DNA of 59,207 nt from Bacteroidales bacterium Bact_13. GTDB lineage: Bacteria; Bacteroidota; Bacteroidia; Bacteroidales; UBA932. The notes beneath the pieces were generated by a model that was not told the origin of the DNA, searched no databases, and worked only from the letters and a program-made list of their open reading frames with translations. The stretch covers positions 1-59,207 of the forward strand of contig LUZE01000164.1 in NCBI GenBank assembly GCA_001602845.1, read 5' to 3'. Shown here piece after piece: positions 1,916-35,125 of the stretch; position 1 is the stretch's first letter; every line of letters begins with the position of its first letter. A program made the translations under genes and the position numbers.

Positions 1916-3883
1916 TCATAGAATCCACGACAAAATTAATCGAAAATTCGTTCCCGGCATCGGATAGCATTGCACAACTTCGTATTGCTGGTTGAAAATG
2001 TTGTTGACTTCGAGCGTTCCTTTCAGCTGGTGGGCGCCCAGCGCAAAGGCGCGCGAGAGCGAAAGGTCGCTGGTATACCAGGGTTGGGCGTGGTTCTCCG
2101 GGATGTTGGCCACAGCCTCGTACCGCTCTCCGGTGTAGATGAAACTGTAGTTGAGGTGCCAGCCCTTCCAGTCGATGCCCGTGATGACGGAGCCGCTGTG
2201 CCAGGGGATGTAGGGAATCTGGCCGCCGTACCAGGGACTGGACGGATCGGTGAAATCCTGTGCCTTCTGGAACGTGTAGGTAATCCTGACGTTGGCAGAG
2301 ACCGGCCCCAGTGCCAGCTGCGTGCCGGCGGCAGCGTCAATGCCGCGGATCTGCACGAGTCCCAGGTTGACCATCGTCCATTGGAACTGGTTGGAGGCGG
2401 GCATGGCGATGATCTTGTTCTCCACTTCATTATAATAGGCATCGAACGTACAGTCGATATTCCGCAGGAACCCTTTTGTCCAGCTCTTTTCCCAGGTCGC
2501 CCCCACGTCGTACTGGGTGGTGAACTCGGGTTTGAGGTATTTGTTGCCGATGAAGGTGTAGTACAGGTCGTTGAGCGTGGGCATGCGGAAAATGCGTTTG
2601 TAAAAGGCCCGGATCGTGAAATTCTTGTCGCGGAAGGGAATCAGCTGCAGCACGGCTGTAGGGGTCCAGTGGTGCCGGCTTTCCGCAGCGGCGCCCGCTT
2701 CCCGGGCCCGGTCGGCCACGAACGTATGGAGCACGCTTCCCTGCAATTTGAGCTTTTCCCAGCGGAGCGAGGTGGACAGGGCTGTCAGCACGGTGTGCCG
2801 TGAAGGGTAGACGAAGTTCACCAGGTCGGCGTCGAGCGTGTTGAACTGGTAATCCGCGGCCAGGTCGACATCCCACCACCCGTTGATCTTGTATTCCTGG
2901 GCCAGCGAGGCATAGGCCTCCTGCTGCCGGTAGTGGTTGTCGACGTACATCGTGCTCACGTCGAGCCGCGGGTCGGAGAGATAGTGCAGGTAATCGTAGG
3001 CGTACTTGAAGCTGGCGTTGAGGTGCCAGTCGCCCCATTCCTTGTAGAGGGAGCCCTGGGCGAAGAAGTCCGTGTCCCACTGCCGGTCTTCGTGCCGGAA
3101 CTTGCCCGGTTCCTCGCGCACGAAGGCGCCGGGATACCCGCGTTCCGAGTCGTAGAAATAGAGTTTCATCTTCCAGCTGCCGTCCGGGATCCGGCCATGC
3201 AAGCCTTCCTCTATGCGCAAGGCCCGTACGTCGCCGTTCTGCCGTACGGCCGTCGTGTCGTAGCCGTCCTTTTTCCGGTAAGAGAACTTGTAGCGTCCCG
3301 TGGTATAGAGATATTCGGCGTTGAAGGAGTTTGAGACGCGTTCGCCGAGTCGCTGTTCCCATAGCACCGAGGGGTTGACGGTGCCGAAGGATCCGCCGGC
3401 AAGTGTGGCCTTGAAATTGGTCCTCCGGCCGCCCTGAAAGACCGGCGTGCGGCTTCGGAGATAGACGGCGCTGGCCGAGGCATAATCCTTGGCCGACTGC
3501 ACGGCCGTTCCTTTCTGACCGTTGTAAAGCGTCACGGACTCCATGTTCTCAAGCGAATACTTGCCCAGGTCGATCTGCCCGTTCTGGGCATTGCCGAGCT
3601 GGATGCCGTCGTAGAAAACACCCACGTGCTGGGTGCCCATGCTGCGCACGTTGATGGTCTTCAGGCCGCCGATGCCGCCGTAATCCTTGATCTGGACGCC
3701 CGAGAAGTAGCGGATGGCGTCGGCAACCGAGAGGGCGTTCAGCCGCTGGAGCTGCTCTCCCTGGAGCGCCTGTGCCGGAATGATCTTGTCGGGCGGCCGG
3801 AAGGCGGTCACCACCGAGCCCGTCAGGACTTCCGTCGTGTCGGGCACCGAAAGCAGCAGTGTCAGTAGCAGCGAGAGGATCAT
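1916..3883 (-). CDS. btuB: TonB-dependent outer-membrane receptor, cobalamin-type by context
   Basis: 655 aa. Plug-domain sequence LNALSVADAIRYFSGVQIKDYGGIGGLKTINVRSMG...VFYDGIQLGNAQNGQIDL, followed by a long beta-barrel region. The ATG overlaps the upstream stop as ATGA (3880-3883). It lies in an operon headed by a cobalamin riboswitch. Confidence 0.85.
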   Translation of the reverse strand: MILSLLLTLLLSVPDTTEVLTGSVVTAFRPPDKIIPAQALQGEQLQRLNALSVADAIRYFSGVQIKDYGGIGGLKTINVRSMGTQHVGVFYDGIQLGNAQNGQIDLGKYSLENMESVTLYNGQKGTAVQSAKDYASASAVYLRSRTPVFQGGRRTNFKATLAGGSFGTVNPSVLWEQRLGERVSNSFNAEYLYTTGRYKFSYRKKDGYDTTAVRQNGDVRALRIEEGLHGRIPDGSWKMKLYFYDSERGYPGAFVREEPGKFRHEDRQWDTDFFAQGSLYKEWGDWHLNASFKYAYDYLHYLSDPRLDVSTMYVDNHYRQQEAYASLAQEYKINGWWDVDLAADYQFNTLDADLVNFVYPSRHTVLTALSTSLRWEKLKLQGSVLHTFVADRAREAGAAAESRHHWTPTAVLQLIPFRDKNFTIRAFYKRIFRMPTLNDLYYTFIGNKYLKPEFTTQYDVGATWEKSWTKGFLRNIDCTFDAYYNEVENKIIAMPASNQFQWTMVNLGLVQIRGIDAAAGTQLALGPVSANVRITYTFQKAQDFTDPSSPWYGGQIPYIPWHSGSVITGIDWKGWHLNYSFIYTGERYEAVANIPENHAQPWYTSDLSLSRAFALGAHQLKGTLEVNNIFNQQYEVVQCYPMPGTNFRLILSWIL

Positions 3884-5375: not shown

Positions 5376-6497
5376 TTAATCGGGATAATAGCGCACGGCT
5401 ACGTCGTCAATGGCGAAGTAGGCAGGCGTGTTGATGCCCCAGTCGCCATATTGCTCCGGAGAACCGGCGACGGAGAAAACCACCTTATCGACGGAGCCCA
5501 GCCTGGAAAGATCCCATTTCGACCACTCGGTGGTGAAGGAGATGTTCTTGGCCAGGAAATACTCGGCCGTTCCGACCGCTTCGTTGCCTACATAGCCCGT
5601 TGCGATCACCTTGAAGAAGCCGTTCTCGGCCATGGGTGCTGCATAGTCGTTGCCGTTGCGCAGGACGTTGAGCGTGTAGCAGGTGTTGTTGACGCAGACC
5701 GACTCGAAGACGCGGGCGACGCCGTCCTTCATGGCCAGGGTGGCGGGATTGTAGACACCTGCATCGAAGACGACGGCGAAATTGTCGGAGCCGCCGCAAC
5801 CGGCGCCCTTGCGGGTGAGGCCGTCTACATCCATGGCGACCACTTCGAGCTGGCGCATGAAGTCGGCGCCGGCGATCATGCCGTTGCCGTAGTTGGAGAT
5901 GGCGATGCCGCCGCTGGAATAGCCGTAGGTGTAGGCCTCGTAATTCTGAGGAAGGATGCTGGAGGTGATGAACGTGTTGTTTTCGTCATACCAGGTGCAG
6001 CCGTCCGCGCTATAGAGGATCGGTCCGCCGTATTCCGGATCGTCAATCAGGTTGCTCCAGTAGTTCGTCGTTTCGGCGGCGCCCTTGTAATCGGCGTCTT
6101 CAAAGGTCAGGACGCGGATCTCGCTGTAACGCGGAAGGATGACGGTCGTGCCATCCGAGAAAGTGAAAGTATAGGTATCTTCCCCTTTGGTGACACTGAC
6201 GATGGATCCGTCCTTGCCGTCATTACCGGGTTTGCCGTCGGCACCGTTGTGGATGGTTATCGCACCGCTTTTCTTGAAGTTGATGGTGTAACTGCCGTCG
6301 GCATGCGGAGTGACGCCCGTCACGGCGTCATCATTCTGAAGGGAACTGACCAGGGTTTGCAGTTGCGAGAGCTGGGTCTTGAGGTCATTGATGGAGGAAC
6401 GAAGTTCGCTGTCGTCGTAGCAGCTGATGGCCAGGGAACCGGCCAAAATGATGGAAAGGGCGAGTCCGCAGACTCTCCTGAAGTTCATGGAGAACAT
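5376..6497 (-). CDS. surface lipoprotein of unknown function (possibly DUF4465-like)
   Basis: ORF 5376..6521. Alternative starts lie at 6521, 6497 and 6488. MNFRRVCGLALSIILAGSLAISC gives a classical lipobox. The protein has a coiled N-terminal stretch and then a beta-rich domain. It is the first gene after the riboswitch. Confidence 0.65.
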   Translation of the reverse strand: MFSMNFRRVCGLALSIILAGSLAISCYDDSELRSSINDLKTQLSQLQTLVSSLQNDDAVTGVTPHADGSYTINFKKSGAITIHNGADGKPGNDGKDGSIVSVTKGEDTYTFTFSDGTTVILPRYSEIRVLTFEDADYKGAAETTNYWSNLIDDPEYGGPILYSADGCTWYDENNTFITSSILPQNYEAYTYGYSSGGIAISNYGNGMIAGADFMRQLEVVAMDVDGLTRKGAGCGGSDNFAVVFDAGVYNPATLAMKDGVARVFESVCVNNTCYTLNVLRNGNDYAAPMAENGFFKVIATGYVGNEAVGTAEYFLAKNISFTTEWSKWDLSRLGSVDKVVFSVAGSPEQYGDWGINTPAYFAIDDVAVRYYPD

Positions 6498-6539
6498 ATC
6501 TGAGTGATTTAAGTTGGTCACGACACCTGTTTTTGCTGC

Positions 6540-6715
6540 CCGGATTCCCGCAGGCAGACGTTAAACAATCGTGACGGGCAGGTCTTCTGACTCGTTCCAG
6601 TGCGGCGCCTTCCCGGGGCTGGCCCAGTGGCAAAAAGAGAGCTGCGACAAAACAGGAACTTACAGCAGCGGGATCTGTCCGGGATTCGCACCCGGTTCCC
6701 TTAACCCGTCACGAC
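6540..6715 (-). promoter_or_regulatory. cobalamin (B12) riboswitch
   Basis: The minus strand reads GTGACGGGTTAAGGGAACCGGGTGCGAATCCCGGACAGATCCCGCTGCTGTAAG...TTTTTGCCACTGGGCCAGCCCCGGGAAGGCGCCGCAC...CCCGTCAC. This contains the AGGGAA / GGTG..AATCC / CCCGC.GCTGTAA core, the GCCACTG B12 box, GGGAAGGC, and a closing P1 helix GTGACGGG/CCCGTCAC (6705-6712 with 6571-6578). Confidence 0.85.
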
Positions 6716-6776
6716 ACAAAGATAGGATGTTCTCGTTAAAATAGCAAGCAAAAACAGCCGTAAACGCGGGGCACCG

Positions 6777-14362: not shown

Positions 14363-14560
14363 ACGTCGCTCCGCTTGGGCCTTGGCCCGTGGCGCGCCCC
14401 TCTTGTCATGCCCTGCCCCGACCCCTTCGTCATGCCCGGCCCCGACCGGGCATCTGGTAACTGTGGCGCGCCCTCAATCGTCGCTCCGCTTGGGCTTTGG
14501 CCCTGTGGCGCAGCCGGAACCGTTTGGGGGCTGCGAGCCCTCGCCCCAAACGAACCGCGG
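14363..14560. repeat. cluster of GC-rich REP-like intergenic elements
   Basis: Two copies of CGTCGCTCCGCTTGGGCYTTGGCCC(K)TGGCGC (14364-14395 and 14479-14511). GGCGCGCC occurs at 14391-14398 and 14465-14472. There is a palindromic unit GTCATGCCCGGCCCCGACCGGGCATCTG (14429-14456) preceded by a degenerate half-unit (14404-14425), and a hairpin CGTTTGGGG...CCCCAAACG. Confidence 0.8.
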
Positions 14561-14625
14561 CTGCTGCACCAGGCCCACGCACAGCCCGCGCTCCGAGACT
14601 TGCGCCATCGTCTGGGCGGGTGTTA

Positions 14626-14737: not shown

Positions 14738-14789
14738 CCATCCCTTGCTTTGAGCCCAATCCTGTGTTGCCCGACTGATCTCCCCGACT

Positions 14790-14816
14790 GTCATGCCCGG
14801 CTTGACCGGGCATCTG
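14790..14816. repeat. REP-like palindromic unit GTCATGCCCGGCTTGACCGGGCATCTG
   Basis: Same family as 14429-14456 and, in inverted orientation, 20646-20672. Stem ATGCCCGG/CCGGGCAT. Confidence 0.8.
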
Positions 14817-15051
14817 AAAACGCCTGCGCCGTCCCTCCTATCACGAAAGGCATGAGGGCGCCGCTTCTTCCCTTTCGCGTCAACTTTTTCCAGTGATAAG
14901 GCTGAATCCCGTCCGCGAAAGGCATCATATAGATGAATCTTCCCTTTCGTGACAGACAAATGAGATCAAACGTATTGTCTCCAACGCGCTGAACACTATT
15001 AGTGACGGTAGCGTCCCAACAAATGGGACGTTACCTGCACTCGGTTGTCGA

Positions 15052-15118
15052 GGGTTATCCTCGTCAGGGCGCTGCGGGACCCTCATTATCCCGCAGCAGC
15101 CCTGGCGGGAGATAACCC
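15052..15118. repeat. long imperfect hairpin (about 27 paired positions)
   Basis: GGGTTATCCTCGTCAGGGCGCTGCGGG - loop ACCCTCATTAT - CCCGCAGCAGCCCTGGCGGGAGATAACCC, paired by eye with two G-U pairs, one mismatch and one bulged A. It sits 45 nt upstream of the first island gene. Confidence 0.7.
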
Positions 15119-15162
15119 GCAAATCAGAAAAATGACTATTTTTGTTCTCAAATGCCTTTAAT

Positions 15163-15804
15163 ATGAACAAAATCCTTCTTATTTGCTTTTCCCTTTTATC
15201 CTTCCACAGCCTTTTTGCACAGGACATCATCCATACTGTAAGTGCTAAGACAATTGAAGCAAAAGTATTGGAAATCAGTGATACTGAAGTAACTTATAAA
15301 TTGTTCAACAACTTGGAAGGCCCAGTATTCAGAATGTCGACAGATAAAGTCTTCAAGATTGTCTTTGAGAACGGGACCGAATATTCCTTTGTAGAAGATG
15401 TGGTCAATCATGGGCTTGCTCCTGATGCCTCACTTCAAGAACTAACAGCCAAAGGCAACAATCTTCTGCTCATCTTTAATGATATGAACGGTAATTTCGA
15501 TGAAAAAGATGCATATCTAAAAGAGTTTCTTCGGGAAGATGGTCGCTGGAACCTGGTGGATATTCCAGCAGGAGCAGATTTCATTCTTTATGTTGAAGGA
15601 TACTCAAAGCGAACGGCCAAATCCTTTGCCAGCGATACCTATTTCATGACTCCAACCATCCGTCGGATGGACAATACAGATGTTTGGACAGGAATGACAG
15701 TAGATGCGTGTGCTAATGCTTTTAACGGTTATAGAGCTGTTAAAGCGGTGTCCAAGGCTCTTGTATTCGAATCTCTTCTTCGCGGTTTGGATAATGCCCA
15801 ATAG
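15163..15804 (+). CDS. hypothetical exported protein (low-GC island gene 1)
   Basis: ATG 15163 gives MNKILLICFSLLSFHSLFAQ, a signal peptide. The track ORF starts at TTG 15142. AT-rich codon usage contrasts with the flanks. I recognise no motif. Confidence 0.6.
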   Translation: MNKILLICFSLLSFHSLFAQDIIHTVSAKTIEAKVLEISDTEVTYKLFNNLEGPVFRMSTDKVFKIVFENGTEYSFVEDVVNHGLAPDASLQELTAKGNNLLLIFNDMNGNFDEKDAYLKEFLREDGRWNLVDIPAGADFILYVEGYSKRTAKSFASDTYFMTPTIRRMDNTDVWTGMTVDACANAFNGYRAVKAVSKALVFESLLRGLDNAQ

Positions 15805-15806
15805 TC

Positions 15807-15823
15807 CCCCGACCGGGCATTTG
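15807..15823. repeat. half-copy of the REP-like unit (CCCCGACCGGGCATTTG)
   Basis: Matches the right half of the 14429-14456 unit. It lies between island genes 1 and 2. Confidence 0.55.
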
Positions 15824-15857
15824 ATAACTTAGGTGTATGAATCAAAAATTATTTCAT

Positions 15858-16472
15858 ATGAAGAAATTAGTAGTATTCTCTATTATGTTGATTGCTGGCA
15901 CTTGTGCAGTATTTGCTCAGCCAGAATCAGATAATTATTTTCTTCCCGAAGATAGCAACGGTAGAGTCTTCATCAGCGGTGTAGTTGAGGTTCCGTATAG
16001 TGCCGACACGATCATCAGCCTTACGAAAGACTTCGAGGTGGAAATTGATCATTGGAAATATTGTGATACGAGCGATAAGTATTATGGCCTATCAAAGATT
16101 TCTTTTATTACAGAACTAGGTGTCGGAGAACGAGTTGTTGATCTTGGCATTGTCGGCGAAGTGACTAAACCCAAAAGCATCGTTAAGTTTCTGCTAACTC
16201 TGGAAGTTAGAGACGGTAAGTATCGTTACACAATGACGGACTTCAAGACGGAGCGCTGGCGTATTCGTGGCGATGGACCCGATGACGGCCCTTCAAACGA
16301 GATGCATCGGCAGCGGGTTGCCTGCATCAATGGGTATCCGAAGAAATATAAAGGCATTCCTCGCGAGGAGTATCTTGCAGAAGAAGAGGATAGCCTCAAG
16401 GCAGAGTATGAAGTCGTGATGAAATTCGTAAAGGAAGTGGAGAATATGTGTAATCGATTCAGTGATTTCTAA
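15858..16472 (+). CDS. hypothetical exported protein (low-GC island gene 2; possibly DUF4468-like)
   Basis: ATG 15858 gives MKKLVVFSIMLIAGTCAVFAQ, a signal peptide. About 204 aa. The family assignment is only an impression. Confidence 0.55.
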   Translation: MKKLVVFSIMLIAGTCAVFAQPESDNYFLPEDSNGRVFISGVVEVPYSADTIISLTKDFEVEIDHWKYCDTSDKYYGLSKISFITELGVGERVVDLGIVGEVTKPKSIVKFLLTLEVRDGKYRYTMTDFKTERWRIRGDGPDDGPSNEMHRQRVACINGYPKKYKGIPREEYLAEEEDSLKAEYEVVMKFVKEVENMCNRFSDF

Positions 16473-16538
16473 ACCACCCTGAACAAAAACTGCAGCAACT
16501 AATTTCGAGATACTACACGAAAACGGAATAGATTTACA

Positions 16539-17012
16539 ATGAAAAGATTATTATTGGTTTTAACGACTCTTTGTCTTTGTCATTGTTTATATGCACAATC
16601 ATCTTTGACCTATCGTGGTGGTAAGTTTTATGGTAATGACGGCCGTGTCTTGTCCGATGCTAATATGTTGAATCTGGTTGGCCGGGATGTTTATTACGAC
16701 ACGTACGTAGATGCCCGGAGACAGTTGAGGCTCGGCAAGACATTGGCTTTTACCGGCATTGGCGTTTTTTCGGCAGGATTAGCGGCCACTATCGTTGGCG
16801 CTTATACTGGTTATGATGCAATTTATTATAGCGGAGCCGCTGTTTCTGTTGTTGGCGGCGCGTTAATCGATGCCGGTATTCCCATTTGGGTTATTGGAAG
16901 TTCTCGACTTCACTGGATAGAATCGGATTACAATAAAAAACATGCTTCTGTCCAGGTACAACTGTCTCTTGTTGTCGTGAACAGAGGGATTGGATTATCG
17001 GCGCGGTTCTAA
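16539..17012 (+). CDS. hypothetical membrane protein (low-GC island gene 3)
   Basis: MKRLLLVLTTLCLCHCLYAQ signal peptide, then two hydrophobic Gly/Ala-rich helices (LAFTGIGVFSAGLAATIVGAY, AAVSVVGGALIDAGIPIWVIG). Confidence 0.55.
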   Translation: MKRLLLVLTTLCLCHCLYAQSSLTYRGGKFYGNDGRVLSDANMLNLVGRDVYYDTYVDARRQLRLGKTLAFTGIGVFSAGLAATIVGAYTGYDAIYYSGAAVSVVGGALIDAGIPIWVIGSSRLHWIESDYNKKHASVQVQLSLVVVNRGIGLSARF

Positions 17013-17160
17013 GTGTCAGTCGCGGAGCGCGGGCTGCGCGTTGGCCTGGTGGAGAGGTCACGGTTCCTCGTGGCGAGTGCTCGACAGCCACGAGGGCTCT
17101 GACCTCGCCAAAGGCAAAGCCCGCACAAGCAAAACGACGCTCCGTGGCGCGCCCAAGCAA
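17013..17160. repeat. GC-rich REP-like cluster at the right edge of the island
   Basis: Hairpin CCTCGTGGC-12 nt-GCCACGAGG flanked by GGTCA/TGACC. GGCGCGCC occurs at 17146-17153, within a segment resembling the reverse complement of the 14364-14395 repeat. Confidence 0.6.
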
Positions 17161-17300: not shown

Positions 17301-18953
17301 TTATAGCCGTAAAGTGTCGTCGCAGAGGGTGGCGACGCCTGGACGATGGGTAATGAAGATCATCGTCCGGTCGGGGCAGGCGGCAAACAGCCGCGTAAAG
17401 AGTTCCCGTTCCGTGGCTTCGTCAAGCGAAGCACTGATTTCATCAAGCAGCAGAATGCTGCCGGGGCGCAACAATCCGCGCGCAATGGCGATGCGCTGGG
17501 CCTGGCCTTCGCTCAGGCCGATGCCACGTTCCCCAAGCTCCGTATCCAAACCGTCAGGCAGGTCGAAAACGAAATCGGCCGTAGCCGTATGAAGAACCGT
17601 GCGCATCTCCTCTTCAGTAGCGTTCGGCCGCGCCAGCTGGAGATTGAAACGCACCGTACCGCTCATCAACGTGTTGCCTTGCGGCACGAAGACGAAATCG
17701 GTACGGGTGGCGGGAGAGGCGGGTCGCCTGTCTTTTTCGTCGTAAAGGGTCAACGAACCCTCGTCAGGGTTGACCAGAGAAAGCATCAGGCGGAACAGCG
17801 TTGTCTTTCCGACACCTGTCGGCCCCATCAACGCCGTCTTGCTGCCCGGCATGAAGTCGTGGGAGAAATGCGAAAGCACTGGCATGTCGCCCGTCGCGTA
17901 GCGGAAACTGACATCTTCCGCCCGGATACCGGCAACGCCCGGGAATGCAGGAACCATCGGGTCTCCCGCCGTCGATTCCTGCTCGAGCTGCAACAATTCC
18001 TCGAGACGGTCGATGCTGGCCGTCGCGTGGATTGCCTGCGGCACCATGTTCAACAGCGTCAGAATCGGATTCTGGATCTGCCCCACCAGCTGAAGGAAAG
18101 AAGTCATGACGCCGAAAGTGATGGCGCCGGCACGCAGTTGCAGGCCACCCCAGACAAACGCCAACAAATAGCCGAGACCGAAACACGATGCCAGCACCAG
18201 GCGCGTGGCGACCGTAAAGCGCGTGCGCCGCTTCACACGGCTCATCAGGCTGTCCTGCATGTGATCGAGCCGGTCCGTCACCCACTGTTCGCTGCCGAGC
18301 GAACGGATCGTGGCGTTGTGCTCCATGCCCTCCTGCACCTGCATCTGGATCCGGCTCTCGTCCTTGCGGATATCGAGCGTCATCTCGCGCAGGGGCCGGG
18401 CGATGAGCTTGCCGAAAACGATGGCAAGCGGGGTAAGCAGCAGCAACGCCCAGGCCAAGGTACGGTCCATCGAGTGCATGAGCAGGAAAGCACCCACCAG
18501 CTGGACAAGGGTCACCAGCATACGGGGCAACAGCTCCGTTGTGGCATCTCCCACCGCATCAATATCTTTGGAGAGGCGGGAAGTAATGTCTCCCGAGTGG
18601 ATCTCGCGCTCAGAATAGAGCTGTCGCGAAAACAACCGGCTGAAGACGCGGAGGCGGAGGGAATTGGTCTGCTTCGTGTCGGCGATGATCGTCATGTAGT
18701 AATAGAGCTGCCGCAAAATGACACCGCCCAGCACGACAGCGACTAATGCGACGATCATGAGGATGACATCCTGCCGGGTCCCCGTCCGGATGGTCACGTC
18801 GATGAAACGGCGGCTGAGCCATACCATCAACAGCCCGAGTCCGACCTGGGTGATACCGGCCACAACCCGGATGAGGGTATTCCAGCGAATACCCCGCATC
18901 CCTTCCCATATCCAGCGGACGTACTTCACGCGATGATGCCGAGTTTCTGCCAC
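17301..18953 (-). CDS. ABC exporter, fused permease/ATPase
   Basis: 550 aa. N-terminal six-helix TMD, Walker A GPTGVGKTT, signature LSEGQAQR and Walker B ILLLDE. The start is uncertain: ATG 18953 overlaps the PqqD gene by 28 nt, and the alternative is ATG 18899. Confidence 0.85.
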   Translation of the reverse strand: MAETRHHRVKYVRWIWEGMRGIRWNTLIRVVAGITQVGLGLLMVWLSRRFIDVTIRTGTRQDVILMIVALVAVVLGGVILRQLYYYMTIIADTKQTNSLRLRVFSRLFSRQLYSEREIHSGDITSRLSKDIDAVGDATTELLPRMLVTLVQLVGAFLLMHSMDRTLAWALLLLTPLAIVFGKLIARPLREMTLDIRKDESRIQMQVQEGMEHNATIRSLGSEQWVTDRLDHMQDSLMSRVKRRTRFTVATRLVLASCFGLGYLLAFVWGGLQLRAGAITFGVMTSFLQLVGQIQNPILTLLNMVPQAIHATASIDRLEELLQLEQESTAGDPMVPAFPGVAGIRAEDVSFRYATGDMPVLSHFSHDFMPGSKTALMGPTGVGKTTLFRLMLSLVNPDEGSLTLYDEKDRRPASPATRTDFVFVPQGNTLMSGTVRFNLQLARPNATEEEMRTVLHTATADFVFDLPDGLDTELGERGIGLSEGQAQRIAIARGLLRPGSILLLDEISASLDEATERELFTRLFAACPDRTMIFITHRPGVATLCDDTLRL

Positions 18954-19195
18954 AGGTCAAGCAGCGCCTTCACATCGGAAAGGGCCACCTCGGGGGTTAC
19001 TTCATAGGCTTCACACAGGGCCTCCGCCATCGATTCGGCGTCGAACTCGCCCATTTCTCCGGCCTTGTCCCAGATCCAGGCCGCCGTGTCGTTGATCGAC
19101 ACCAGCTTGCCGAAATCGACAGCGCCCAGGCCTTCGCCTACAATCACCTTTTCGCCGCACACTTCGCGCAGCACAAATCCTTCTTTCCTTTTCAT
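18926..19195 (-). CDS. PqqD-family protein (RiPP recognition element-like)
   Basis: Likely start ATG 19195 (MKRKEGFVLREVCGEKVIV...NDTAAWIWD...AEALCEAYEV..EVALSDVKALLDLWQKLGII). The length (89 aa) and pattern fit a PqqD winged helix. ATGA overlap with the upstream stop (19192-19195). Confidence 0.75.
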   Translation of the reverse strand: MKRKEGFVLREVCGEKVIVGEGLGAVDFGKLVSINDTAAWIWDKAGEMGEFDAESMAEALCEAYEVTPEVALSDVKALLDLWQKLGIIA

Positions 19196-19650
19196 TGTAT
19201 CGCTTTGTTTCGAATAATCGTTCTTTTGTAAACCGCCAGAATCCACCGCCGTACCGGCAGGAGCCGGCGCCACCAGCGCGCCCGGCGCCGCTGTGCAGGT
19301 GAATCGAGCCGGCGGTGACGGCCGTCTTCCCCGACGACCTCATCTGCCCGGGCCAGCACGTCTTCCGGACGGCAGGTTTCCTGCCCGCGGATGTTGCCGT
19401 CTCCCATCAGCACGACACGCGTATCGGACACCTCCATCACGCGATGCAGCACATATCGGCAGCCATCGATTCGGGCCAGCACCACATCTCCTTCCCGAAT
19501 CTCGCCGGGCCGGGTCAGCACGACACTTTCCAGACCGCCCAGGATGAAAGGCAGCATGCTGCGCCCCTTCACGAGCATCGTCACGGAAAGCCCCTCGTTC
19601 ACCAGCCGTACGGCATCGCCGATAATCTGTTCGTCAGATACCTTGTTCAT
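19192..19650 (-). CDS. S24/S26-family serine peptidase (signal-peptidase-like)
   Basis: Likely start ATG 19650 (MNKVSDEQ). Nucleophile box KGRSMLPFI, a later VLHRV box, and an Arg/Trp-rich C-terminal tail RRRARWWRRLLPVRRWILAVY. ATGA overlap with the upstream stop (19647-19650). Confidence 0.7.
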   Translation of the reverse strand: MNKVSDEQIIGDAVRLVNEGLSVTMLVKGRSMLPFILGGLESVVLTRPGEIREGDVVLARIDGCRYVLHRVMEVSDTRVVLMGDGNIRGQETCRPEDVLARADEVVGEDGRHRRLDSPAQRRRARWWRRLLPVRRWILAVYKRTIIRNKAIQ

Positions 19651-20525
19651 GCTTTCCTGATCGTTTCCGCACACAGGCGGGCAGCCGCTTCGTCGGGCAG
19701 GCAATCCAGGTGCCAGACCGGCACCGTGGATGCCAGTGCATTTTCCGTTTCGTGCAGTCCGTCAGCCATGGCCCTGTCCCAACGCTTGCCCGAAATGCTC
19801 GGGACAAGCGCCGCATATGCGGCGATACCCCGCAGCGGCCGGATGGCATTGTACGGAGCCTGTGCCAGTTGTACGAATCCGCCCAACGGCAGGTCCATGT
19901 TCCGGTAACAGGGCGTCTTCCCGCTCCACGGAGAGCCGTACACGCGCGCCGAACCGTCGGGAAGGACGCGGACCACGGGATTGTCGTCGTTCACGAGTTC
20001 GGACCCCGCTATATATTTTAGCCAGAGACGGGCGTGAGTGCTCTTGCCGGTGCCGCTCTTGCCGAGGAACAGGTAGCCGTTCCCGGCATTGCCGATTACG
20101 GCGGCGTGGAAGAGGGCCGTACCCAGCCGGGCCGTGCTCATCGCGTACATCACCATCAGCGCATTGTTCAGGCCGAAGTCGGAATGAGAAGACAGTGACA
20201 GCGTCGCGGTTTTGAAATCGGCGGCCGCCAGCATGCTGGACGACAACTGTCCCCACAGGGAGAACTCGAACCAGGATGCACCGTCCACTGTCCGGCTCAA
20301 GCGGATCTGCGATCCGTCGTCATCCTGGTTGAATTCCTCCGTGAGTCCTTCCGGACGCGGAAGACAGGAAGCCGGAACCACTTGAAGGGTAAAGACGGGA
20401 CACGCTGCAGCCGTGCCTTCCGTCATGAACGGAGCATAATGCGACAGCTCCGCATCCAGGTCGATGCCTTCGGCAGCCTCTATGGCAAACAGATGTCCTG
20501 CAACGGTATAATAATACACTTTCAT
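19647..20525 (-). CDS. HPr-kinase-like P-loop protein (HprK-related kinase)
   Basis: 292 aa. The C-terminal half has GYLFLGKSGTGKSTHARLWL...SELVNDDNPVVRV, matching the HprK pattern G.SG.GKS...LV.DD.V. The N-terminal half has no motif I recognise. Confidence 0.7.
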   Translation of the reverse strand: MKVYYYTVAGHLFAIEAAEGIDLDAELSHYAPFMTEGTAAACPVFTLQVVPASCLPRPEGLTEEFNQDDDGSQIRLSRTVDGASWFEFSLWGQLSSSMLAAADFKTATLSLSSHSDFGLNNALMVMYAMSTARLGTALFHAAVIGNAGNGYLFLGKSGTGKSTHARLWLKYIAGSELVNDDNPVVRVLPDGSARVYGSPWSGKTPCYRNMDLPLGGFVQLAQAPYNAIRPLRGIAAYAALVPSISGKRWDRAMADGLHETENALASTVPVWHLDCLPDEAAARLCAETIRKA

Positions 20526-20540
20526 ATTCTATGAAGAATA

Positions 20541-20548
20541 CAAAGTTA
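20541..20548 (-). promoter_or_regulatory. Bacteroidota -7 promoter box TAACTTTG
   Basis: Perfect TAnnTTTG on the minus strand, 15 nt upstream of ATG 20525. Confidence 0.45.
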
Positions 20549-20600
20549 TCATTAAACAATGAATTATCAAAAGACTTGCTGATTCTGTGTCATCCGGCGG

Positions 20601-20637: not shown

Positions 20638-20645
20638 CTTCGTTT

Positions 20646-20704
20646 CAGATGCCCGGTCAAGCCGGGCATGACAATGGGGCCGGGCATGACAGAATGGGCG
20701 CGCC
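20646..20704. repeat. REP-like composite (full palindromic unit, half-unit and GGCGCGCC)
   Basis: CAGATGCCCGGTCAAGCCGGGCATGAC (20646-20672), then GGGGCCGGGCATGAC, then GGCGCGCC (20697-20704). This has the same architecture as the reverse complement of 14388-14456. Confidence 0.8.
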
Positions 20705-34112: not shown

Positions 34113-35125
34113 ATGTCTTTCGTTTTTATATGTTCTGTCTTGTAGGATTTCATCTGCCCGTCCTCTTCGTAAATCAGCAGGGCCTCTAGGTCCGGACGCC
34201 CGGAGAGGACCTCCCGCGCAGGGCCGGTGCCGACGACCATCATCCAGGTGGCATAGGCGTCCGCGGTCGTGGCATCCTTCGCAACGACCGTGGCGCTCAA
34301 GAGGTTGTGCGTAACGGGGCGGCCGGTCTTGGGGTCGATCGTGTGGGCGAACTTCTGCCCGTCCTGCACGTAATACTTGCGATAGTTGCCGGAGGTCACG
34401 ATGCCACAGTCCGTCACTTCGATGACGGCTTCCAGGTACCGGCCTTCTTCCTCGTTCCCGTCGAACGGACTGTCCAGGCCGATGCGCCAGTCATTCCCGG
34501 CCGGGTTCTTCCCCTTGCAGATGATCTCGCGTCCGATGTCGACCAGGTAGTCCGTCACGCCGAGCGAATCGAGGAGCCGGGCCACCACGTCGCAGGAATA
34601 GCCCTGGGCGATGGCGTTGAAATTGAGCCGGGCACGGGGATCCGCCTTCACCAGGTGGATGCCGTCCTCCCGCTCCTCGAGCCGGAACAGGTCCATGCCC
34701 GTAAACTGCAGGATCGAGTCGATGGCGGCCTGTGAAACGACGCCCTTGTTCGAGAAACCGAATCCCCACAGGTCGAACAGCGGCGCGGCGGACGGGTCGA
34801 AGGCGCCGCCGGTCTCCTCCCAGATTTCCCTGGAGCGGGTGAAGCACTCGATGAACAGGTCGTTGAGGCAGGGATCTTCCCCGGCGTTGATCCGGGAGAG
34901 GAGAGAGCCTTTGTTGTATCCGCTCAGCGTATTGTCAATTTCCAGCAGCAGGCTGTCGACTTTCGCACGGAGCTCCTGTTCCGCCAGCCGCCCCGGAACG
35001 GAACCGGTAACGTGATAGGTGCCCCCCTGGGCATAACCCTCGAAGCGGACGGGACGGACCGCCCTGCCGCAGCCGCCTGCCAGCAGCAGCGCACAAAGCA
35101 GGAAAGGAATGACGGTACGGTACAT
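34109..35125 (-). CDS. apbE: FAD:protein FMN transferase (ApbE family lipoprotein)
   Basis: Likely start ATG 35125 ([19 protein letters not shown], lipobox). ApbE-like sequence ...[10 protein letters not shown]... and ...[24 protein letters not shown]. Confidence 0.8.

Follow-up and report, generated by a model that had tools for sequence, protein, structure and literature searches.

What could be the substrate of an operon that encodes a kinase, a peptide recognition element, a leader-type peptidase and an exporter and that shows no peptide gene of its own? The question is raised by four minus-strand genes at positions 20525–17301 of a 59,207-nt stretch of DNA from Bacteroidales bacterium Bact_13 (contig LUZE01000164.1), the whole of which is referred to below as the window. 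A first-pass annotation, made from the letters alone, had seen in these genes the logic of a peptide maturation and export pathway and had been unable to place them in a characterised class. The first statement proved right; the second is superseded, because the homologues LppK, LppS, LppB and LppD of the pathway for linear polyphosphorylated peptides (LPP) have been characterised in Paenibacillus (PMC13381572), and the operon therefore no longer stands unclassified. We conclude that it is very probably a Bacteroidales cassette of the LPP type, with the order lppK-lppS-lppB-lppD, and consider it likely that this cassette acts in trans on dispersed, acidic, LppA-like peptides mostly encoded behind genes for giant secreted proteins.

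LPP were defined by Popov et al. (Nat Commun 2026;17:6633, PMC13381572), whose starting point was a signal peptidase of archaeal type in Bacilli and who described a set composed of the signal peptidase I (SpI)-like LppS, LppB, which is a discrete recognition element (RRE) for peptides that are made on ribosomes and modified after translation (RiPPs), the HprK-like kinase LppK, the nucleoside triphosphate (NTP) transferase LppN and the MsbA-like exporter LppD. The lppA-K-B-S-D-N cluster of Paenibacillus alginolyticus was characterised by genetics and biochemistry: LppK adds several phosphates to Ser3 of the core, LppS (S29, H68, D93) cuts the leader only when it is presented by LppB, and deletion of lppN left the detectable products unchanged (PMC13381572). 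The precursors, up to 200 aa long in Bacillota, carry the leader YxxPxVLxHQxIxFETxxS, and it is the SpI-type leader peptidase, as opposed to the B2 protease, that separates LPP from lasso clusters. The class was described as restricted to Bacillota, with about 126 clusters and with no known function or final product; the supplement lists further pairs of SpI and RRE proteins, left unstudied there, in clusters 4, 6, 8 and 9 of a sequence similarity network (SSN) (PMC13381572).

The product of the first gene, judged by its sequence and structural model, is a P-loop protein of the HprK/PEPCK-like fold and a homologue of LppK. Its AlphaFold2 model (pLDDT 93) retrieved phosphoenolpyruvate carboxykinase (PEPCK) in a Foldseek search at E 1e-6 and also HprK/P, and the motifs H140, GKSGTGKST (155–163) and NDD (179–181) are invariant in 51 homologues. 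Comparison with the LppK fragment given in the supplement of PMC13381572 yielded a BLASTP E value of 4e-15 (30% identity over 148 aa) and an hhalign probability of 98.3%. The profile scores lie below their cut-offs for Hpr_kinase_C (14.7 bits, cut-off 33.3), TIGR00679 (16.2 bits, cut-off 240) and TIGR04249 (24.4 bits, cut-off 125). Since the Hpr_kinase_C score is under its cut-off, the kinase assignment rests on fold and motifs, and the HprK-like label of the first-pass annotation stands for these two and not for the Pfam family. The claim that the operon lacks a known core enzyme does not stand, as the kinase itself corresponds to the class-defining enzyme of the LPP pathway.

The relationship to HprK/P is one of fold level only: HprK/P and PEPCK have in common with the window kinase the P-loop fold and the motif order H...GxSGxGKS...DD, and HprK/P differs in that the window kinase falls below the Pfam and NCBIfam cut-offs, has another N-terminal domain and occurs without a phosphotransferase system context. 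Another comparison is with ScmC of the SynChlorMet (SCM) cassette (TIGR04249), where it is accompanied by two radical-SAM/SPASM proteins and a homologue of PqqD; ScmC is not known to have been characterised. The ScmC family (PF27840) appears in the precomputed annotation of all 120 close and 120 distant homologues of the window kinase and of the called genes, for some of them weakly or faintly. By this annotation the two proteins would fall in one Pfam family, and both are paired with a PqqD homologue; the SCM cassette is distinguished by the TIGR04249 score given above and by its radical-SAM genes, which have no counterpart here.

The second gene encodes a peptidase that, by its sequence, is a member of clan SF (S24/S26) with the Ser-His arrangement of the archaeal/SipW type, unlike the Ser-Lys arrangement of LexA. 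It scores just at the threshold of Pfam Peptidase_S24 (23.5 bits, cut-off 23.3) and below the cut-off of sigpep_I_arch (28.8 bits), and the motifs GxSMLPFI (S31), H69-R70 and GDGN (83–86) and the residue E91 are invariant in 75 sequences. BLASTP aligned it with LppS at E 3e-6, with S31 and H69 opposite the catalytic S29 and H68, whose role mutations have proven, and with the cluster-4 SpI proteins of Dehalobacter and Anaerocolumna at E ~1e-14. The third, acidic catalytic residue is ambiguous: LppS D93 aligns near Q90/E91, the latter residue being invariant, and a further candidate is D84 of GDGN. The AlphaFold2 model (pLDDT 78.6) consists of a helix at residues 6–18, a clan-SF beta core and a second helix at 118–146, and its Foldseek matches are LexA, UmuD, cI and SpsB. 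Together with the homology to LppS, these data bear out the earlier description of a signal-peptidase-like serine peptidase.

Two further features concern the ends of this protein. As the protein has no membrane anchor at its N-terminus, its active site is expected to lie in the cytoplasm, and the N-terminal helix is predicted, from the model and by analogy, to correspond to the LppS helix that contacts the sheet formed by RRE and leader. SipW/Sec11-type (S26B) peptidases have the same clan SF fold and the same Ser and His in GxSMxP and hHR, followed by GDxN; the window peptidase differs from them in lacking the transmembrane anchor and, by analogy with LppS, in its expected dependence on an RRE. 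The C-terminal helix is long, basic and amphipathic, a family trait common to LppS and the cluster-4 SpI proteins. A self-cleaving S24 protein of the LexA/UmuD type was ruled out, as His69 occupies the general-base position instead of Lys. The idea that a LexA-like protease releases its own basic C-terminal helix was rejected as well, there being no cleavage region before Ser31: only 30 residues, forming a helix, precede this serine, and the cleavage region of LexA and UmuD lies about 35 residues upstream of Ser.

The third product belongs to the PqqD family with 51.6 bits (cut-off 23.4, E 1.2e-13), well in line with the earlier claim, and the RRE that is paired with SpI in Anaerocolumna (cluster 4) matches it at BLASTP E 5e-15. 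The proteins of SSN cluster 4 (Dehalobacter, Anaerocolumna) are thus closer to the window peptidase and RRE than LppS and LppB are; a sequence search of the PDB gave no match for the peptidase or the PqqD protein. The fourth product is, by its sequence, a half transporter with one transmembrane and one nucleotide-binding domain, of the type IV/ABCB-like kind, as had been proposed: ABC_membrane (104 bits) and ABC_tran (80 bits) are both above their cut-offs, and the best PDB matches of this generic half transporter are ABCB-type exporters. It should be noted that the PqqD protein and the exporter are assigned by Pfam family, and that the likeness of the exporter to LppD is therefore one of family and not of sequence alignment.

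The layout of the operon is compact (Table 1). The four open reading frames (ORFs) are present at the coordinates given in the first-pass annotation and are translationally coupled, with ATGA start/stop overlaps at 19647–19650 (kinase and peptidase) and 19192–19195 (where the PqqD gene adjoins the peptidase gene). The ATG starts chosen there give proteins of 152 and 89 aa, equal in length to their relatives. The 28-nt overlap proposed at 18926–18953 probably results only from the choice of the longest ORF, because the alignments of exporter homologues begin only at residue 9, which is a GTG at 18929; from this start the exporter has 542 aa and its gene overlaps the stop of the PqqD gene by 4 nt (GTGA). 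An ATG at 18899 (532 aa) is a possible alternative. Upstream, the perfect −7 box TAACTTTG occupies 20541–20548, separated from the first ATG by 15 nt as described before, and a TTTG partner was found 19 nt further upstream. We take this to be a Bacteroidetes-type promoter in the sense of the Bacteroides consensus, and its function is deduced from that consensus; in 59 kb, the pattern TTTG-N17-21-TANNTTTG is matched 2 times, where 0.23 matches would be expected. The number of terminator-like sites in the region is not above the shuffled expectation, and Rfam and tRNA scans gave no match in the operon region.

We observed that the quartet is conserved as such. A scan of one genome per species yielded 197 relatives, of which 80 loci, from rumen Bacteroidales and Prevotellaceae, were examined (the window, too, stems from an uncultured Bacteroidales of the rumen, and cultured Prevotellaceae such as MN60 and HUN156 are among the carriers); in a neighbourhood survey of the kind that the first-pass annotation had called for, the order kinase, peptidase, PqqD, ABC is retained with short or overlapping junctions in approximately 66 of 85 related Bacteroidales loci. 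The genes on either side are of many kinds, among them the dcw cluster with acyltransferases, fumarase, NusA/RimP and TyrRS, and therefore the four genes travel as a unit. Six loci lack an adjoining ABC gene and a few lack the peptidase. The kinase is matched at E ≤ 1e-30 by 834 clusters in a search of 1.84 billion representatives, and 14 of the best 150 representative clusters are fusions of kinase and peptidase (~430–515 aa, about 440 aa; listed in Table 1), one of which has 314 members, one member being seen on 128 contigs. Such fusions are a difference from LPP of Bacillota, and so is the setting of the Bacteroidales cassette in conserved housekeeping neighbourhoods, where it is not obviously patchy.

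The absence of a short precursor ORF in cis, reported earlier for the window, was confirmed there and extended to the 66 colinear relatives: neither within the operon nor next to it is a small ORF conserved. This check, carried out on 85 loci (ORFs of ≥20 aa with ATG starts and, in gaps, ORFs of ≥12 aa with any start), returned only shadow ORFs of neighbouring genes. Equally, the reported lack of modification enzymes held: no Asn-synthetase-like cyclase, transglutaminase-like B2 protease or radical-SAM protein is encoded in the operon or among the annotated neighbours within ~8 kb, neither of the first two recurs as a conserved neighbour in ~90 related loci, and no radical-SAM gene was found among the annotated neighbours of the relatives.

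Precursor genes appear beside more distant members of the family, which supports the earlier suggestion that the substrate is encoded elsewhere. With a distant homologue (35% identity) as the query, we obtained neighbourhoods in Bacteroides sp., Dysgonomonas, Muribaculaceae and others, in the order AraC regulator, small ORF, lipoprotein, kinase, peptidase, PqqD, NTP_transf_5 (PF14907) and ABC; an example of the precursor-like small ORF is MKENKTKETYVKPESEIINIEVEQPILVGSAPDYDNGGTWW. A hidden Markov model (HMM) of these small ORFs recognised the same leader in nine rumen loci, mostly of atypical arrangement or with NTP_transf_5. A precursor gene with the YxxP leader is present in the related loci L086, L087, L091, L130, L192, L082, L052, L044 and L158. 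NTP_transf_5, the LppN-type gene, is part of the cluster or adjoins it in L075, L080–L082, L086–L088, L090, L091 and L130, and the fuller Bacteroidales clusters that add both this gene and a precursor gene are L086, L087, L088, L091 and L130. Between the precursor and kinase genes of three of these loci there is a gene for a lipoprotein of 320–390 aa with no Pfam match (L086:6868-7983, L087:7002-7961, L091:1523-2683); this lipoprotein and the upstream AraC-type regulator could be further members of the cluster.

We then ran a degenerate DNA pattern encoding M-x-K-x-x-Y-x-x-P-E-[MV]-E-V against public metagenomes. By our own estimate this pattern carries ~39 bits, so that few chance matches are expected. 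The scan gave at least 120 loci (numbered L092–L211), and all listed matches begin short ORFs of 33–64 aa; 125 distinct sequences were used for the statistics and for an HMM. The leader reads M-x-K-x-x-Y-x-x-P-E-M-E-V...h-L-[A/T/S]-[S/G/A]-S, with invariant Y and P in YxxP. The positions conserved outside the pattern, counted from this Tyr, are a hydrophobic residue at +10, h-L at +16/+17, A/T/S at +18 and Ser at +20 (73 of 125); beyond +20 the sequences are hypervariable. The putative cores have on average ~20 residues, with D, G, E and P abundant, and carry a mean charge of −5.3. The HMM aligns to the first 11 residues of the LppA-like precursor MKKLTYKAPEV..., and no Pfam or NCBIfam model matches the peptides.

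The peptide genes have two kinds of neighbours. In 88 of the 120 listed loci they start 0–150 nt after a gene for a large secreted repeat protein, and 8 of the 120 listed contigs also carry cassette genes, compared with ~0.3 expected (Poisson P ~1e-6), which corresponds to a ~25-fold enrichment. L158 contains a typical four-gene cassette, 51–58% identical to that of the window, immediately preceded by genes for a giant protein, a peptide and a 275-aa protein; in L130 the order is peptide, kinase, PqqD, peptidase, NTP_transf_5; and in L204 and L159 the orthologous ABC gene is convergent with the peptide gene. The giant proteins reach ~2,380 aa, contain Fn3_assoc or MBG domains (examples: L133:869-8017, L158:3851-6628 and 2525-3352, L052:16734-19778) and share a C-terminal module with '...W..h.LPF...' that ends in '...GWYT.xG.KL...KG.YI.NGKKV..K'. 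This ending resembles a sorting domain of the type IX secretion system, although profiles do not confirm it, TIGR04183 reaching only 14.8 bits on one of six C-termini and Pfam giving no match.

The comparison with LPP of Bacillota is thus as follows. The window operon likewise combines an HprK-like kinase, a discrete PqqD-type RRE, a Ser/His leader peptidase and an ABC exporter, with no cyclase, and related Bacteroidales clusters likewise have an LppN-type NTP_transf_5 gene. The Bacteroidales peptides resemble LPP precursors in their MKKxxYxxPE leader, in a Ser ~18–20 residues after Tyr and in hypervariable C-termini. The differences are the phylum, the window belonging to Gram-negative Bacteroidota; the absence from the window operon of lppN and of a precursor, both of which LPP clusters carry in cis; the location of precursor genes, which in LPP lie in the cluster or in capsule loci and in Bacteroidales are mostly dispersed behind giant secreted-protein genes; the leader after YxxP, which is PEMEV...hLxxS in Bacteroidales and PxVLxHQxIxFETxxS in LPP; and the short (~20 aa), very acidic cores, unlike known LPP cores. 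In the literature on ScmC, on SynChlorMet, on PF14907 and on PqqD with S24 or with Bacteroides we found nothing relevant, and a paper on RiPP mining in Bacteroidales does not report the cluster.

On this basis, the following course may be proposed, in which we infer the chemistry, the order of steps, the cleavage site, the phospho-acceptor and the presence of precursors in this organism by analogy with the Paenibacillus pathway. The PqqD protein would bind YxxP in the leader of a small ribosomal precursor and would present it to the ScmC-family kinase, which would phosphorylate a conserved Ser near the junction of leader and core, possibly several times; the predicted acceptor is Ser at Y+20, by analogy with LppA Ser3 at Y+18. 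The same protein would present the precursor to the cytoplasmic Ser/His peptidase, and cleavage of the leader would follow the small residue at Y+18, the hydrophobic one at Y+16 taking the role of LppA Phe-3. With neither the C nor the B2 protein of lasso clusters, and with the leader presumably removed by an S24/S26-type serine peptidase, the product is presumably linear, and the ABC half transporter would export the core across the inner membrane. The precursors would lie outside the operon and the 59-kb window, most likely as members of the dispersed LppA-like family, and because their genes are dispersed in the genome the cassette would act in trans. This agrees with the dispersed peptide family and with its linkage to cassette genes, which concerns a minority of loci and is significant. 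That peptides of the PEMEV type are the substrates in the lineage of the window is, in our estimate, slightly favoured; that the cassette forms, in place of a self-contained cluster of the antibiotic kind, a conserved single-copy hub, which phosphorylates, trims and exports many dispersed LppA-like acidic peptides in trans, is put forward as a tentative extension.

Several observations weigh against a trans-acting cassette of this kind. Searching the 59-kb window and up to 10 kb around typical four-gene loci with the HMM built on the 125 peptides, we obtained no precursor-like ORF, and the link between the lineage of the window and the peptide family is for this reason indirect. The gene lppN is absent, tblastn giving no homologue anywhere in the 59-kb window, and LppB is a weak match to the PqqD protein (BLASTP E 0.006). 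The cores are acidic and without the features of known LPP cores; most peptide genes (~88 of the 120 listed) adjoin giant secreted-protein genes and not enzymes, and given these neighbours the peptides could have another or an additional role. Finally, the estimate of enrichment assumes one cassette per 3-Mb genome.

These points lead to the question of whether an LPP-type machine might serve another substrate, either a precursor family of unrecognised sequence or an N- or C-terminal protein segment, for example of the giant secreted proteins. Such a substrate would account for the missing precursor in the window and near typical four-gene loci and for the stronger tie of the peptide genes to giant-protein genes than to the cassette, and precursors of up to 200 aa are known from LPP of Bacillota (PMC13381572). 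We nevertheless regard it as unlikely, since peptide genes stand directly beside cassette genes in at least eight independent arrangements (L086, L087, L091, L130, L192, L082, L052 and L158) and since YxxP, invariant in these peptides, is the motif to which the discrete RREs of this clade bind. The same gaps in the window, namely no precursor, no cyclase and no lppN, might instead mark a functionless remnant of a lasso or LPP cluster that has lost them; however, the catalytic motifs are invariant across hundreds of species, the genes are intact and translationally coupled behind an intact Bacteroidetes promoter, homologues number in the thousands (834 representative clusters at E ≤ 1e-30), and the fusions are maintained on many contigs, all of which makes decay very improbable.

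The other two explanations concern the neighbours and the kinase. Clusters of the paeninodin, pseudomycoidin and Bsf-type lasso peptides consist of A, C, B1, B2, K, N and D genes, and the relation to paeninodin-type kinases drawn in the first-pass annotation is right: there too an HprK-like kinase acts on a Ser of the precursor, a B1/PqqD RRE recognises [Y/W]xxP, a nucleotidyltransferase is optional and an ABC exporter is present. A split pathway of this type, with cyclase and precursor elsewhere, would share kinase, B1-like RRE and exporter with the window; yet the operon has neither the macrolactam synthetase (C) nor the transglutaminase-like B2 protease, its leader peptidase is of the SpI type and not a B2 cysteine protease, which is exactly the trait dividing LPP from lasso clusters, and no Asn-synthetase-like gene is conserved in ~90 related loci, so that this explanation is hardly credible. 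A housekeeping function in the envelope, such as the export of lipids or amino-acid lipids with no peptide involved, is brought to mind by Acyltransf_2 and Acetyltransf_5 genes immediately upstream on the same strand in ~22 loci and by DAGK_cat and PlsC-like genes 3–5 kb away in the window. The acyltransferase neighbourhood is nevertheless limited to one syntenic lineage, the flanks in other lineages being unrelated; the PqqD protein, the leader-type peptidase and the LppK homologue point to a peptide substrate; and the homologous pathway was characterised as one of peptide maturation (PMC13381572). An envelope function of this kind therefore has very little probability.

Some variants among the relatives deserve mention for their own sake. 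In L004 and ~21 other Prevotella loci, the Acyltransf_2 and Acetyltransf_5 genes lie 8 nt from the kinase gene, adjoin the dcw cluster and may, in this lineage only, be co-transcribed with the kinase gene; they presumably encode N- and O-acyltransferases of the glycine-lipid/ornithine-lipid type. A link of the cassette to glycine lipids was set aside, these neighbours being limited to that one syntenic lineage. In L014 (8684-10870) the kinase ORF continues the reading frame of the upstream IspG (GcpE) gene; between the two there is neither a stop codon nor an obvious ATG, and the locus contains a genuine fusion or else has a kinase start of non-standard kind. Similar products, merged with TruB and LpxB, occur among the representatives (P0348, P0368), and P0082 joins an N-terminal NTP_transferase fragment to the kinase, which may be a merge of gene calls. 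In L090 (1883-6456) genes for a DegT-type aminotransferase, a UDP-glucose dehydrogenase and an NTP_transferase directly precede the kinase, followed by NTP_transf_5, and these sugar-nucleotide genes hint at glycosylation of the phosphopeptide; a fusion of PqqD and ABC in this locus was not supported. Anti-phage defence was discarded as a function, PADLOC giving only generic nucleotide-binding-domain matches for the ABC protein and no match for the kinase.

Table 1. Positions of the operon, its putative signals and the surrounding elements in the window, with the representatives of kinase-peptidase fusions.
Feature	Position	Strand	Remarks
lppK-like kinase gene	19647..20525	(−)	292 aa
lppS-like leader peptidase gene	19192..19650	(−)	152 aa
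lppB-like discrete RRE gene (PqqD family)	18926..19195	(−)	89 aa
lppD-like ABC exporter gene	17301..18929	(−)	probable GTG start; longest ORF from 18953, 550 aa
Putative Bacteroidetes-type promoter	20541..20571	(−)	−33 TTTG, 19-nt spacer, −7 TAACTTTG
Possible intrinsic terminator (weak)	17136..17153	(−)	~150 nt past exporter stop; consensus scan
AT-rich island	15000..17010		GC 0.40–0.46 vs ~0.60
Three genes of the island	15142..15804, 15837..16472, 16539..17012	(+)	small proteins, no solid family match
REP-like palindromic intergenic repeat	14391..14462, 14782..14822, 15807..15829, 20643..20704, 34490..34502		GTCATGCCCGGCTTGACCGGGCATC
Inverted pair	14783..14819 / 20643..20679		37 nt, 95%
Second pair	14552..14600 / 17018..17066		49 nt, 84%
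Segment inverted vs L001	6777..14362		
Cobalamin riboswitch	6560..6724	(−)	RF00174, 97.8 bits; upstream of minus-strand gene 5376..6521
Kinase-peptidase fusion representatives			P0242, P0248, P0249, P0254, P0263, P0285, P0294
Kinase-peptidase fusion representatives (continued)			P0303, P0304, P0318, P0345, P0350, P0356, P0376

Further features lie around the operon in the window. Between the exporter gene and a gene for a PlsC-type acyltransferase lies an AT-rich island that is probably an acquired insertion; the products of its three genes look secreted or lipoprotein-like by our own reading of their N-termini. Copies of a palindromic repeat resembling repetitive extragenic palindromic (REP) elements are scattered through the intergenic regions (Table 1); the inverted pair brackets the island together with the operon, and the second pair brackets the island alone. 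Compared with the 74%-identity relative L001, the segment with the genes for MetRS, DnaG, an HU-like protein, (a metallophosphoesterase), a DAGK-like kinase and an acyltransferase is inverted, and in L001 an insertion of two large genes, with products of 1,070 and 406 aa that have no Pfam match, lies between fumarase and the operon.

Taken together, our results extend the LPP machinery to a second phylum, in which it is far more abundant, with thousands of proteins in gut and rumen Bacteroidales. New in comparison with known LPP are the absence of lppN here, the fusion variants, the unlinked precursors and a previously unnoticed link in gene order to giant-protein genes. RiPP mining tools that require a precursor in the cluster or a known core enzyme will miss this cassette. 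Two things become testable now, namely whether one set of RRE, kinase and peptidase serves many unlinked precursors and what role polyphosphorylated acidic peptides have at the surface of dominant gut and rumen bacteria. If the tentative hub reading is true, LPP of Bacteroidales would serve cell-surface biology, for example as partner or anchor peptides of individual surface proteins, and not inter-microbial warfare.

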